Assembly: GCF_003334785.1 (NCBI RefSeq)
Contig: NZ_QOWV01000050.1
Reading direction: 5' to 3' (one strand)
DNA length: 3,829 nucleotides
From: Escherichia coli
GTDB lineage: Bacteria; Pseudomonadota; Gammaproteobacteria; Enterobacterales; Enterobacteriaceae
Shown: positions 1-3,534 of the stretch, piece by piece
Layout: every line of letters begins with the position of its first letter
Numbering within the stretch: the first letter of the stretch is position 1
Made by a program: the position numbers and the translations under genes
Notes under the pieces: generated by a model
Told to the model about the DNA's origin: nothing
The model's database searches: none
The model's input: the letters and a program-made list of their open reading frames with translations, nothing else

Positions 1-62
1 AGAAAATATCCGGCGGGTTCCGGAGCGCCAGTCTGTAGGTTTATCCATCAATAGAACTCCGT

Positions 63-287
63 CTAATTTAGAAGGAGTTCTAATTTAGTCTGCAAGGAGC
101 AGGTGTTACAGACGGCATTGGCTTTACGCTTACCGTTTATATAAAAGCTGTCCTGCAATTTGCGGGTAACAACTTCTGCCAGGCGATTCCGGTTATCCGC
201 CAGTCCGGCATAACCTCTCTCTGTCAGCCACTCATTCAGTTCATGTTTCAGAGACAGATTGATAATATCATAATCGGACCTTGCCAT
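63..287 (-). CDS. Small hypothetical protein, about 74 aa from the ATG at 287 (the ORF track extends it to 99 aa from a TTG at 362); possible DNA-binding or regulatory protein, function unknown
   Basis: Open frame on the minus strand ending at TAG (65..63). The ATG at 287..285 is preceded by AAGGA with about 7 nt spacing (minus-strand reading GCTAAGGAAACGGGA-ATG). The track's start at 362 is a TTG preceded by a GGGGGA run 3 nt upstream. The product (MARSDYDIINLSLKHELNEWLTERGYAGLADNRNRLAEVVTRKL...) has a helical, charged composition and a single CxxC (CNTC) near the C-terminus. Same strand as all neighbours. Confidence 0.45.
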   Translation of the reverse strand: MARSDYDIINLSLKHELNEWLTERGYAGLADNRNRLAEVVTRKLQDSFYINGKRKANAVCNTCSLQTKLELLLN

Positions 288-1315: not shown

Positions 1316-1729
1316 TCACTCCTGGTCCCGGAGCAAATCTGGCTGGTATCTGTAAACATACTTCGTACATGCCGCTCTGCAATAAATCCCCGTACCACAG
1401 GTTTCACAGAACTTCTTCCCATGAAAAAGCCTCTCGCACATCACGCAATGCCACTCCAGCACGACAGGTAATGGCGATAAAAACATCGCCATATCATCAA
1501 TGTAAGGATGGGATTTTTCCGGATTCAGCACCACACAGGCCGCCTTCTGTTGCTCGCTCAGGGCATGTAAATCATGCTCAAACCACGCCCCCTGAGCATC
1601 TGTCTGCAAAATCAACCGACCACGACAGGAAAGGCAGAAACAATGCCTGATATTTCTGCTGAGCGCAGAATCGGCACTGATAATGTGCTCACCCGGCGTG
1701 ATCCCCAGCCCCGTTTTTAGACCGTTCAT
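1316..1729 (-). CDS. Cys-rich putative zinc-binding protein, paralog B (137 aa); function unknown
   Basis: Minus-strand ORF whose ATG (1729..1727) overlaps the stop TGA (1728..1726) of the upstream paralog as ATGA, with a GAGGAGG SD-like sequence inside the upstream gene's 3' end. It shares with paralog A an N-terminal CxxC (CLSC) followed about 13-15 residues later by W-F-E-H (nt about 1574..1585), and a C-terminal W-H-C-x2-C-x9-C-x-T-C-x-T-G signature (WHCVMC...CETCGTG). Conservation of these motifs between two adjacent same-strand ORFs is strong internal evidence that both are real. Confidence 0.72.
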   Translation of the reverse strand: MNGLKTGLGITPGEHIISADSALSRNIRHCFCLSCRGRLILQTDAQGAWFEHDLHALSEQQKAACVVLNPEKSHPYIDDMAMFLSPLPVVLEWHCVMCERLFHGKKFCETCGTGIYCRAACTKYVYRYQPDLLRDQE

Positions 1730-2115
1730 CCTGCCACTGCCTCCTCACTGAAACGCCCTGTATGACAGTGTGTGCAGTACCGCTCCCCATAATAATCGTG
1801 CTGGCATTGTCTGCAGTGCCAGTTGGCTTTACGCACCACGGGTAAGGCATCCGGTACCCATTGCTGTAAGCGTTTAATCAACAGTATTTCTCTGCGCTCC
1901 GGTCTGACATAAGGGCACTCATGACCGTGCTCAGCCAGCCCTTCGCCAGTGTGTTCAAACCAGGGACGCTCGGTATCGTATTGCGGGTGGTATCTGAGCG
2001 CACTGCCGCAAAGGTGACAGGTGTATCGATCGTAAGGCGCTGTCTGTGCAGTACGGGCACCAGTCAGGCGTCCGTTGCCATCGAATGCGAGAAAAGATTT
2101 TGCGTACATCGTCAT
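1726..2115 (-). CDS. Cys-rich putative zinc-binding protein, paralog A (129 aa); function unknown
   Basis: Minus-strand ORF with ATG at 2115..2113 (alternative ATG at 2109) and GAGGAA upstream (minus-strand reading GCTGAGGAAT-ATG). It contains CHLC, then W-F-E-H (nt about 1951..1962), then a C-terminal WHCRQC...CTHCHTG zinc-ribbon-like arrangement, with the same order and spacing as paralog B. The spacing does not match P2 Ogr / P4 Delta zinc fingers as I recall them. Confidence 0.72.
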   Translation of the reverse strand: MTMYAKSFLAFDGNGRLTGARTAQTAPYDRYTCHLCGSALRYHPQYDTERPWFEHTGEGLAEHGHECPYVRPERREILLIKRLQQWVPDALPVVRKANWHCRQCQHDYYGERYCTHCHTGRFSEEAVAG

Positions 2116-2371
2116 ATTCCTCAGCCGCCAGACGACACGCAGGCAGCAACCGTCCCGGTACGGGCAGCGTGGTCAGGGTGTGAATGGCGGTTCAGTTAAA
2201 AATCTGGAATGGGGTTAAGGTAAAACAGACAGGCTGCTGTTACAGCACTGTGGTTGTCACACAATGGCCCACCGACGTAAAAAACTGTCAGCAAGCAGAG
2301 ATGGACATCCAGCGCATGCAGCACCGTTGCAGCCATCAGGGGTTTTACTGGTGTGTCATGTATAGTTAAGT

Positions 2372-2397
2372 CTCCGTATGGTTTCGTTCATACGGAG
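2372..2397. repeat. Perfect inverted repeat / hairpin (9-bp stem CTCCGTATG / CATACGGAG, 8-nt loop GTTTCGTT) in the non-coding gap
   Basis: Read directly: 2372..2380 CTCCGTATG, loop 2381..2388, 2389..2397 CATACGGAG. It sits about 93 nt downstream of the HUH-protein stop (2491) on the minus strand. There is no U-tract on either side, so it is not a canonical intrinsic terminator; it could be an RNA stability element, a protein-binding site or a nick-site hairpin. Confidence 0.5.
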
Positions 2398-2490
2398 TAA
2401 CCACATCGTAAAAAATGCATAGTGCCTCTGAAGTAGCCTCCGGAACCGACTGCAAAGATTAGAGCCAGTCCGCAGTTGTCGCTCAGAACC

Positions 2491-3090
2491 TTATACCTGA
2501 GAACATATCCCCGGCAGGGTGCTGTCCAGTCGCGGTCGCCCCCGGTGACTTTTTTCAGGAAGCCTGCTGCAACCAAGAACGATGCCACATTCTTTCTGTT
2601 CTCGTTTGGCAAGGTAGCTAATGGCATAGCGTAAAGCATTCACCGCTTTGTGGTCTGAATAGTGAATGACGTGGTTAATGTTTACCGGATAATTTTTATT
2701 AAACCGGCACCAGTGGTAGTAACCATTACCATCGGTAACCCGCCTCCAGATATCTCCCATCAATCTGGATACCAGATACGAACTCCTGTGGATCTGACCG
2801 TTCAGATAACCCACAAAATGAATGTGAAGCCCTTTACGTTCCGTATATTCCATCACCCAGGCATACCCGACCAGTTTATCTCCTACCTCGTTAATCAGTT
2901 GCAGCATCTCCGCGCACATGGCATACCTGCAGGCGCATCCGTAGCTGAATGTGTTTTTTCGGTAAGCAAAATCCATTCTGAACGGTAACAGTTTCGAATA
3001 TACCCCGAATAATGAATCCAGATGCTGGTTAAAGTGTGTCAGGAGCTGGGGATCCATTTCGTAACCGGGATTGGCGTTGTAAGTCTTCAT
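2491..3090 (-). CDS. HUH-endonuclease-like (Rep-like) protein, YagK/YfjJ 'inovirus Gp2-like' family, about 199 aa
   Basis: Minus-strand ORF, stop TAA at 2493..2491. The likely start is the ATG at 3090..3088, preceded by GAGGAAG (minus-strand reading ACGAGGAAGAAAC-ATG); the track's upstream ATG at 3117 adds 9 residues and lacks an SD. Sequence shows an HUH motif G-L-H-I-H-F-V (H-I-H at nt 2818..2826) and a downstream Y-L-A-K (nt 2605..2616), the arrangement of HUH relaxase/Rep active sites (His pair for metal, catalytic Tyr in YxxK). The size is about that of E. coli CP4-6 YagK as I remember it. Family name is from memory, not a search. Confidence 0.65.
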   Translation of the reverse strand: MKTYNANPGYEMDPQLLTHFNQHLDSLFGVYSKLLPFRMDFAYRKNTFSYGCACRYAMCAEMLQLINEVGDKLVGYAWVMEYTERKGLHIHFVGYLNGQIHRSSYLVSRLMGDIWRRVTDGNGYYHWCRFNKNYPVNINHVIHYSDHKAVNALRYAISYLAKREQKECGIVLGCSRLPEKSHRGRPRLDSTLPGICSQV

Positions 3091-3265
3091 GTTTCTTCCT
3101 CGTGTTCTGTAACACAAGAAGAAGCGCTGGCGTAATTTTTGAAGAAAACGTTATCACACGAAGACGTGCAAGTTCACAACTCCCCGGGCGCCACAGAGAA
3201 AGTGGGACCACACCCGGGTATCAGAACCATACAGAGAACGGCATACGTGACTGTCAATCACAGCG

Positions 3266-3278
3266 CAGATAATATCTG
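3266..3278. repeat. 13-bp palindrome CAGATA-a-TATCTG between the small gene and the HUH gene
   Basis: Read directly from sequence (6-bp arms, 1-nt centre). It lies in the 231-bp intergenic region upstream of the HUH-protein start on the minus strand; a possible operator, but palindromes of this size are not rare by chance. Confidence 0.3.
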
Positions 3279-3321
3279 ATATGATGTCATTGTGACGACT
3301 GTACTTCATCAGAAACATTTA

Positions 3322-3534
3322 TCAGGTAACATATTTCCAGACTGAAGCGGGAACACGATCGTAAAGTTTGTTCATGGTCAGTTCTGCCAGCCGGTGATCG
3401 ACCGCAGAGTTGAAGGCTTCCATCTCCGCTGGAGTAAGCTTATAACGCGTGTGGGAAATCACTTTTTCCAGTGTCTCCCGGGATGAACAACGACGGAACT
3501 GATACAGCCAGTCTTCTTTGGTCTTAACTTCCAT
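3322..3534 (-). CDS. Small hypothetical protein (70 aa) immediately upstream of the HUH gene; possible regulator, function unknown
   Basis: The ATG at 3534..3532 is preceded by GAGAGGA (minus-strand reading AACGAGAGGATA-ATG); stop at 3324..3322. The track's longer 117-aa version starts at 3675, but that N-terminal extension runs through a palindrome-rich AT-rich region and has no SD, so the shorter form is preferred. Product MEVKTKEDWLYQFRRCSSRETLEKVISHTRYKLTPAEMEAFNSAVDHRLAELTMNKLYDRVPASVWKYVT is charged and helical; it does not resemble AlpA as I recall it. Confidence 0.5.
   Translation of the reverse strand: MEVKTKEDWLYQFRRCSSRETLEKVISHTRYKLTPAEMEAFNSAVDHRLAELTMNKLYDRVPASVWKYVT

Follow-up and report, generated by a model that had tools for sequence, protein, structure and literature searches.

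The window considered here is a stretch of 3,829 nucleotides (nt) of Escherichia coli DNA, and the element in question is an unusually long space without an intact gene, lying between an A-type HUH gene and zn1, the first gene of a Cys-rich zinc-ribbon pair, both on the minus strand. We regard it as likely that this gap is a composite of the deletion scar of a second HUH gene and the ordinary upstream region of zn1, the latter ending in a cis-acting leader. The distal part of the gap (2490-2285) is best read, by homology, as the scar of a B-type YagK/YfjJ gene, and positions 2284-2110 as the ordinary upstream region of the zinc-ribbon operon. The gap would thus be long because the B gene is missing; this chief explanation, a deletion scar of a paralogous gene as the alignments indicate, was missed in the initial annotation. 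The finding is real yet largely ordinary, with the gap length given by the scar and with the hairpin and open reading frames (ORFs) inside it being vestiges.

The gap measures 375 nt between the A-type HUH ORF (2491-3090) and the zinc-ribbon ORF (1726-2115), and 381 nt if the zn1 start is taken at 2109 (MYAKSF), as in RefSeq. The remaining same-strand spacings are 231, -4 (an overlap), 5 and ~133 nt, in agreement with the earlier description of a tightly packed array. The spacers from a Gp2-like gene or alpA to zn1 were 118-182 nt in 10 other loci and those from intact B to zn1 were 166-259 nt in E. coli loci, so that the length of 375-381 nt exceeds the range of the relatives (118-259 nt) and was rightly called unusual. 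By megablast with the gap, 3367 of 5426 complete E. coli genomes match. The entire gap is present in 761 of them, and the other matching genomes share just the zn1-adjacent ~176 nt or ~82 nt. Therefore, the gap is not one unit; its promoter-proximal part goes with zn1 and its distal part does not.

The B gene is intact elsewhere. Upstream of zn1, the loci L006 and L007 have a gene for a different HUH protein, the B-type, with HYH and YLAK motifs. This protein shares 40% identity with K-12 YagK, and tblastn revealed no significant similarity to the A-type. A chimeric query, consisting of the A-type 3′ end joined to the 5′ part of B, was searched over the 5426 genomes, and STEC434 (L024) was the sole genome with a match covering at least 80% of this query at one place. 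The order in STEC434 is A (2100-2699), 122 nt, intact B (2822-3388), 259 nt and zn1. Intact B followed by zn1 is itself a common arrangement, found in 3482 of the 5426 genomes; Nissle 1917 is a strain of this kind, and ATCC 25922 and TW10722 are strains with the deleted layout. A four-way alignment of STEC434, L006, L004 and the window revealed that the window and L004 miss one block of ~567 bp, which extends from B codon ~28 through ~80 nt beyond the B stop. Similar short sequences (GATGT.CATCC..CTGAC), forming imperfect direct repeats, are found at both edges of the block.

Three segments of the distal gap, all on the minus strand, were distinguished. The first (2446..2490; alignments and fold) is the 3′ flank of the A-type gene and carries a small GACUG...CAGUC hairpin; it is common to loci with an A-type gene and absent in L007, which has none. 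The second (2360..2445) is the retained 5′ control region of the deleted B, recognized from alignments with L007 and L024 and containing CCGGAGG..CACTTCAG.., the first copy of a T-tract motif, a hairpin and a Shine-Dalgarno (SD) sequence. The third (2285..2359), identified by tblastn and alignments, is the decayed N-terminal coding stub of B, ~75 nt long, with its ATG at 2359-2357 and its end at the deletion junction, where ...CTGAC is joined to AG. Positions 2445-2285 align with the region directly 5′ of B plus the first ~28 codons of B. The control region is 76% identical over 119 nt to the sequence upstream of intact B in L007, and blastn of STEC434 2704-2894 against window 2486-2300 gave 75% over 200 nt (E 1.4e-37). 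In tblastn with the STEC434 B protein, the stub translation MTHQ-stop-NP-stop-WLQR stands against MTYKYNPFWQQR, and TVLHALDVH is identical to B residues 16-24 at 9 of 9 positions. The B frame in the window is destroyed by an in-frame TAA and TGA, a 13-nt deletion and the loss from ~codon 28 on. Between E. coli alleles the scar is ~80% identical, the lowest of all segments, compared with 87-93% for the flanking coding sequences. An alignment across related islands, which had been suggested as a check, thus found conserved blocks next to zn1 while the scar came out as the least conserved segment.

These observations are consistent with an ancestral order of A-type HUH, B-type YagK/YfjJ HUH and zn1-zn2. 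Some 567 bp would have been lost between the imperfect direct repeats, removing B from ~codon 28 to ~80 nt past its stop and leaving behind its TTTTTTACG motif, an SD-sequestering hairpin, the start codon and the decayed stub. The earlier suggestion of a recombination site holds insofar as the gap contains an old deletion junction, and nothing beyond that. The scar is an ordinary pseudogene remnant of the class known from E. coli islands and cryptic prophages (CP4-6, CP4-57-type, yagK/yfjJ): an intact paralogue occupies the same position elsewhere, and there are likewise in-frame stops, a frameshift, relaxed conservation and short direct repeats at the deletion. It differs from ordinary remnants in that the motif, hairpin, SD and ATG of the lost gene are still intact. 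This intact control region now lies upstream of the next operon and could still contribute transcription to it. The recognition of the scar removes a false lead and accounts for a spurious RefSeq annotation of a 'hypothetical protein' (see below).

The perfect 9-bp hairpin at 2372-2397 had been singled out in the initial annotation, and its arms, CTCCGTATG (2372-2380) and CATACGGAG (2389-2397), are indeed exact reverse complements separated by an 8-nt loop. Its sequence, its fold and the presence of the same hairpin in L007 and L024 place it on the minus strand in the 5′ untranslated region (5′UTR) of the lost B gene. The 3′ arm (2380-2372) ends in the SD of B, GGAG (2375-2372). L007 and STEC434 have this hairpin, as UCCGUAUG-AAC-CAUACGGA, right in front of their intact B start, again with GGAG at the end of the 3′ arm, 8 nt before the AUG of B. 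The minus-strand RNA of 2352-2420 (69 nt) folds at -19.2 kcal/mol (z = -5.7, with 0 of 200 shuffles as good), and the plus strand gives z = -3.4; the L007 fold has z = -3.1, and its outer helix pairs the AUG too. In the B genes of L014-L016 (Tenebrionibacter, Siccibacter and an Enterobacteriaceae metagenome-assembled genome) the stem at this place reads GGUUAU/AUAACC, so that both partners differ in three of the pairs. As the stem sequence is replaced with pairing kept and the SD lies in the 3′ arm, the element is understood as an RNA hairpin controlling ribosome access rather than as a DNA nick site, and it is vestigial in the window because its B gene is lost. An intrinsic terminator was also considered for this hairpin and rejected, since no U run follows it on either strand (ACUUAACU on the minus, UAACCACA on the plus), and it was absent from the terminator scan.

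In holding the SD before the start codon in its 3′ arm, the B hairpin resembles SD-sequestering 5′UTR hairpins such as translational operators and ROSE/fourU thermometers. The likeness includes a position fixed relative to the start codon and covarying stems, both in the B 5′UTR and before zn1. Neither the B nor the zn1 hairpin, however, resembles ROSE or fourU in sequence, and neither has an Rfam match. The 5′UTR of the A-type gene (window 3091-3135, minus strand) shows AAAAATTACG and then a long hairpin (CUUCUUCUUGUGUU-ACAG-AACACGAGGAAGAA) containing its SD; its fold is no better than shuffles (z = -1.4), and A-type genes in other genera have similar 5′UTR hairpins with other sequences. Together, the B 5′UTR hairpin and the predicted A-type ones hint that the module might be held translationally silent until some signal arrives.

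The part of the gap worth following up is the one next to zn1. The proximal 175 nt accompany zn1 in every relative. They open with the second copy of the T-tract motif (2276..2284) and continue with a distal block, CCATTGTGTGACAACCAC..CAGTAAC.. (2206..2275, minus strand), which in alignments is common to loci from Salmonella, Enterobacillus, Klebsiella, Enterobacter and Citrobacter or assemblies resembling them. The last ~90-95 nt are conserved across at least 12 genera whichever gene lies upstream (A-type, B-type or alpA); the conservation is striking in every relative retrieved, and those named by genus are Salmonella, Trabulsiella, Serratia, Tenebrionibacter, Siccibacter, Citrobacter, Yersinia, Budvicia, Enterobacter, Enterobacillus and Erwinia, besides several metagenome contigs. 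Among E. coli alleles, identity amounts to 91-94% in the leader and to 87-88% in the zn1 coding sequence.

Per-sequence folding gave a near-universal architecture with helices P1 and P1b and an apical P2 (GCUGCCCG-UAC-CGGGaCGGC), in which the 3′ strand of P1 ends 2-4 nt before the SD. In the window the minus-strand leader hairpin of ~65 nt (2190-2125) contains P1 (2190-2185 with 2130-2125, CCGCCA/UGGCGG), P1b (2182-2178 with 2138-2133, CACAC/GUGU.G) and P2 (2168-2161 with 2157-2149, GCUGCCCG-UAC-CGGGaCGGU), followed by the zn1 SD GAGGAA (2122-2117) and the ATG (2109-2107). The helices are kept with other sequences in L019 (CUGGA and GCAGGCA), L017 (CACC and GUUGCA), L013 (GCACGAC/GUCGUGC) and L020 (GCCAUG/CAUGGC). 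A covariance model, R1, was built from 17 consensus-type sequences, and its match in the window covers 2107..2205 on the minus strand, in line with the pairing counts and RNAalifold. It was found that R1 gives exactly one sense-strand match per locus, ending at the zn1 ATG, in 30 of 30 aligned loci, and that it finds loci in which zn1 is merely 44-45% identical (E 8e-10 to 9e-6). In the model alignment of 30 distinct sequences, 88.8% of the cells are paired, and 10 of 19 pairs are changed on both sides (30 cells), a value reached by 0 of 500 shuffles and compared with 1-6 in controls with slid partners. A U·G pair recurs in 26 of the 30 sequences, which points to the sense-strand RNA, since such a pair is possible only there. 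RNAalifold on the model alignment recovers the helices. Taken together, the comparison of these sequences shows that base pairs of the zn1 leader are conserved with compensatory changes, beside the SD.

Nevertheless, several points weigh against the account given here. The covariation alignment was fitted to the structure by the covariance model itself, and close relatives make up most of the 30 sequences. With a plain MAFFT alignment, RNAalifold gives a weak consensus (-6.6 kcal/mol, 2 compensated pairs), and the long-range helix emerged only through per-sequence folding and model-based alignment. In the predictions the zn1 SD is for the most part paired (mean probability 0.78), with a partner that differs among sequences; because of these inconsistent partners, specific occlusion of the zn1 SD is not claimed. 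A scan for sigma-70 promoters (-35/-10 elements, 16-18 bp spacing) on the minus strand of 2110-2490 and in the intact STEC434 layout found none, and no intrinsic terminator was found on the gene strand in either, though a consensus scan leaves room for non-consensus or activator-dependent promoters. The earlier proposal that the gap holds the promoter or regulatory region of the Cys-rich operon therefore stands only for its regulatory half: the proximal 175 nt accompany zn1 and end in the structured leader of ~95 nt, and no sigma-70-type promoter is detectable. Finally, STEC434 could have re-acquired B by recombination instead of being ancestral, because L004 and STEC434 share identical A-type proteins, zn2 proteins and B 5′UTRs yet differ by ~19% in the stub. 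The homology argument for the scar is unaffected by such a re-acquisition.

The leader is probably cis-acting and would control translation or stability. In the mechanism we propose, the last ~95 nt would be transcribed as a 5′ leader folding into the ~65-nt hairpin that ends 2-4 nt before the SD, and this would affect, in cis, how translation of zn1-zn2 is initiated or how stable their mRNA is. As the GCCC-loop-GGGACGG and ACGCCUGC segments are conserved beyond pairing needs, they suggest a binding site, and the action would probably go through a factor recognising these invariant segments, the former at the apex. Transcription might come from read-through, or from promoters of a non-consensus type situated at the T-tract motifs or close by. 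Compared with SD-sequestering hairpins, the long zn1 hairpin abuts the SD and ends before it instead of containing it. The leader is best described as a new candidate for the wide class of structured 5′ leaders, without a family in Rfam 15. It gives a concrete, testable handle on the regulation of the zinc-ribbon module. In the Serratia locus (L013 3331-3417) a weak R1 match (E ~0.5) ends in GUAAGGAUCAACAUCAUG near the start of a second zinc-ribbon gene, and a hairpin before the SD may exist for zn2 too where zn1 and zn2 do not overlap.

Alternatively, conservation of the same ~95 nt might reflect a role of the DNA duplex, as an operator or an unusual promoter, instead of RNA structure. The blocks GGGACGG and GCCUGCGUG are conserved beyond the pairing requirement, weak -35/-10-like hexamers (TTCACA-N18-TACCGG) can be read by eye in the consensus, and such islands carry AlpA and Hha regulators. 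We consider this unlikely in view of the compensatory changes in P1 and P1b (L019 GCAGGCA/UGCCUGC, L017 GUUGCA/UGCAAU, L040 UGCAG/CUGCA, and also L038 and L020) and the strand-specific conserved U·G pair. Moreover, the element stays 2-4 nt from the SD, and the hexamer-like words are lost in divergent loci.

The second lead after the zn1 leader is the T-tract motif. In the window, exact matches to TTTTTTACG on the minus strand lie at 2407..2415 (copy 1), 47 nt 5′ of the remnant of the B start codon, and at 2276..2284 (copy 2), at -175 from the zn1 ATG. The motif recurs across loci on the gene strand throughout the module as TTTTTTAC(G/A), or as AAAAATTACG before A-type genes. Together with the variants TTTTTTACA and AAAAATTACG it marks many gene-boundary positions in L001-L034 and one at L039 6179. 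Its sites are 46-53 nt before B starts, ~45 nt before A starts and just after A stops; in Salmonella, Enterobacillus and L025-L034 (assemblies whose zn1 proteins bear Klebsiella, Enterobacter or Citrobacter names) the equivalent of copy 2 follows the A-type stop by 3-16 nt. It also precedes genes that are not HUH genes, namely a small helix-turn-helix gene and alpA-like genes. The K-12 yagK and yfjJ regions are without the zn1 module and are informative for this motif only; there it lies 4 nt after the yfjJ stop with no same-strand gene following. By eye, no geometry of TTTTTTACG fits a sigma-70, sigma-32, sigma-28 or sigma-54 element, and the motif was rejected as the U-tract of a terminator since the preceding stems are just 3-5 bp. 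It could be the -10 element or transcription start site of an activator-dependent promoter, a nucleation site for H-NS/Hha or a HUH nick site.

An origin or nick site of the neighbouring HUH protein had been proposed for the gap. The 9-bp hairpin, with or without the adjacent TTTTTTACG, would be the candidate, in analogy with stem-loop origins of rolling-circle replicons. The neighbouring proteins do bear HUH and YxxK motifs, and T-tract-TAC motifs flank Gp2-like genes on both sides, including the site after K-12 yfjJ. Some alleles place copy 2 of the motif in the loop of a CTGAC/GUCAG inverted repeat. The nonanucleotide of the CRESS (circular Rep-encoding single-stranded) group, TAATATTAC, ends in TTAC, as the T-tract motif does, which is a lead only. 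A hairpin beside a HUH gene with a nearby A/T-rich motif ending in TTAC is thus a shared feature with the CRESS stem-loop and with rolling-circle plasmid and phage origins. In contrast to these, the loop is variable (8 nt, AACGAAAC, against 3 nt, AAC, among E. coli alleles), the motif lies outside the hairpin and at non-HUH genes, and the hairpin contains ribosome-binding signals, its 3′ arm being an SD at the proper spacing from the ATG. Moreover, the gene to which the hairpin belongs is the lost B and not the neighbouring A, and the replaced but still paired stem of L014-L016 fits an RNA role better. We therefore judge an origin at the hairpin very unlikely.

An independent small RNA, on either strand, would be extremely unlikely. 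The stable structure at 2352-2420 and a weak terminator-like site at 2246-2233 on the minus strand speak for it. Nevertheless, the Rfam 15 covariance-model scan, proposed earlier as a check, had no match in 2100-2500 even at E up to 10 (the whole-window scan gave three chance matches, all outside the gap), and no non-coding RNA is annotated there in any RefSeq match. No promoter-terminator pair and no separate conservation were found. The structured parts are accounted for as the 5′UTRs of B and zn1, and the scar between them is the fastest-evolving part, with indels of 4, 5 and 13 nt.

That a small protein is encoded in the gap is scarcely credible: both candidate ORFs exist, and the PGAP annotation gives the 46-amino-acid (aa) one in a minority of genomes, but the 61-aa frame is broken in related loci, the 46-aa frame is residual B with a variable start, and neither has an NCBIfam, PHROG or PADLOC match. 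The 61-aa plus-strand ORF pointed out in the initial annotation is present at 2184..2369; it is not conserved, being interrupted in 4 of 5 related loci by a stop in L004 and by frameshifts in L005, L006 and L024, and it is a chance ORF spanning the scar. The 46-aa minus-strand ORF (2196..2336), identified by alignments and tblastn, arises because the leftover B frame (TVLHALDVH...) is fused to non-coding sequence, into which it continues. Its start varies between alleles, and codon positions 1 and 2 take most of the differences between the window and L004. It is the 'hypothetical protein' of RefSeq/PGAP and represents a gene-fossil frame, and so the earlier statement that the gap has no convincing ORF holds. 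By these comparisons neither small ORF is to be taken as a gene; both appear as artefacts of the scar. A further ORF of 83 aa in another frame (2388-2639, minus strand) overlaps the A-type 3′ end, stops inside the hairpin, has no family matches and is probably a chance ORF as well. There is, in sum, no support for a HUH origin, a small RNA gene or a small protein in the gap.

Two further readings, which do not exclude each other and to which we give jointly a small chance, go beyond the account preferred here. The zn1 leader could represent a novel riboregulator class that responds to a protein or ligand and is dedicated to the DUF7828 operons of AlpA/Gp2-type islands, with the apical GCCC-loop-GGGACGG as the recognition site. 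The (A/T)6-TAC(G/A) motifs bracketing YagK/YfjJ genes could be nick sites of single-tyrosine HUH proteins; if so, the Gp2-like genes would belong to a mobilisation or cassette system of the rolling-circle type within the islands.

In the literature searched, neither these non-coding elements nor DUF7828 were described. Pseudomonas tmRNA (transfer-messenger RNA) islands moved by jumbo phages carry an AlpA regulator, an inovirus-Gp2-like protein and RadC together with variable defence cargo (bioRxiv 10.1101/2024.08.29.610337). The relatives studied here are similar in having Dpd, DndB, SNF2-helicase and Qat cargo beside the same module, and different in that the cited work describes neither zinc-ribbon (DUF7828) genes nor a non-coding element and concerns another host clade. 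The present work is useful groundwork and would be no surprise to a specialist.

The window is 98-100% identical to E. coli chromosomal island DNA, for example that of the enterotoxigenic strain TW10722, and is best regarded as genomic-island backbone. The minus strand carries all its genes, according to the ORF list, RefSeq and Pfam. These are a Hha-like gene (3322-3534), the A-type gene (2491..3090), zn1 (1726..2109), zn2 (1316-1729), a 56-aa ORF and then a gene of the ECs1377 family. The A-type gene, annotated in RefSeq as 'inovirus-type Gp2', was fairly labelled a HUH gene, since HIH and YLAK motifs are read from its translation and weak Pfam matches were obtained to REP_ORF2-G2P (E 1.9e-4) and YagK_YfjJ_C (E 5e-4); the protein had no match in PADLOC or in a PDB sequence search. 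Pfam and RefSeq identify zn1 as a DUF7828 and Zn_ribbon_11 protein. The paralogue zn2 shares DUF7828 and ~31% identity with it, and the two genes overlap by 4 nt (ATGA, 1726-1729), an arrangement pointing to translational coupling. Clustering at 50% identity gives 166 representatives for the small zn1 family, and the matches that bear organism names are all from enterobacterial genera.

About two thirds of the complete E. coli genomes, and many other Enterobacterales, carry this backbone of a Hha-like gene, Gp2/HUH and two zinc-ribbon proteins, which in E. coli is often present in several copies. It adjoins variable anti-phage cargo, and its core genes are without known function. The anti-phage systems beside the Gp2/zinc-ribbon module include Qat, a KAP NTPase, DpdD with a PTPS-family gene, an SNF2 helicase and DndB, and such neighbours were located at L001 175-4734, L027 2151-3390, L030 2109-3387 and L043 2682-2787. 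As they differ from genome to genome, the module appears to be the conserved edge of a family of defence islands. In several E. coli islands an additional gene with a YagK/YfjJ domain lies 3′ of zn2 (651-1217 in L003 and L005; 87-596 in L004). A single island can therefore hold three diverged HUH paralogues, ample recombination substrate for a scar of the kind described above. The left end of the window (1-133) is the edge of an IS66-family element, which accounts for the ECs1377-family region being truncated or rearranged differently between strains; matches in other genomes begin at 134 or 330, and in TW10722 a transposase is annotated up to window position ~48.

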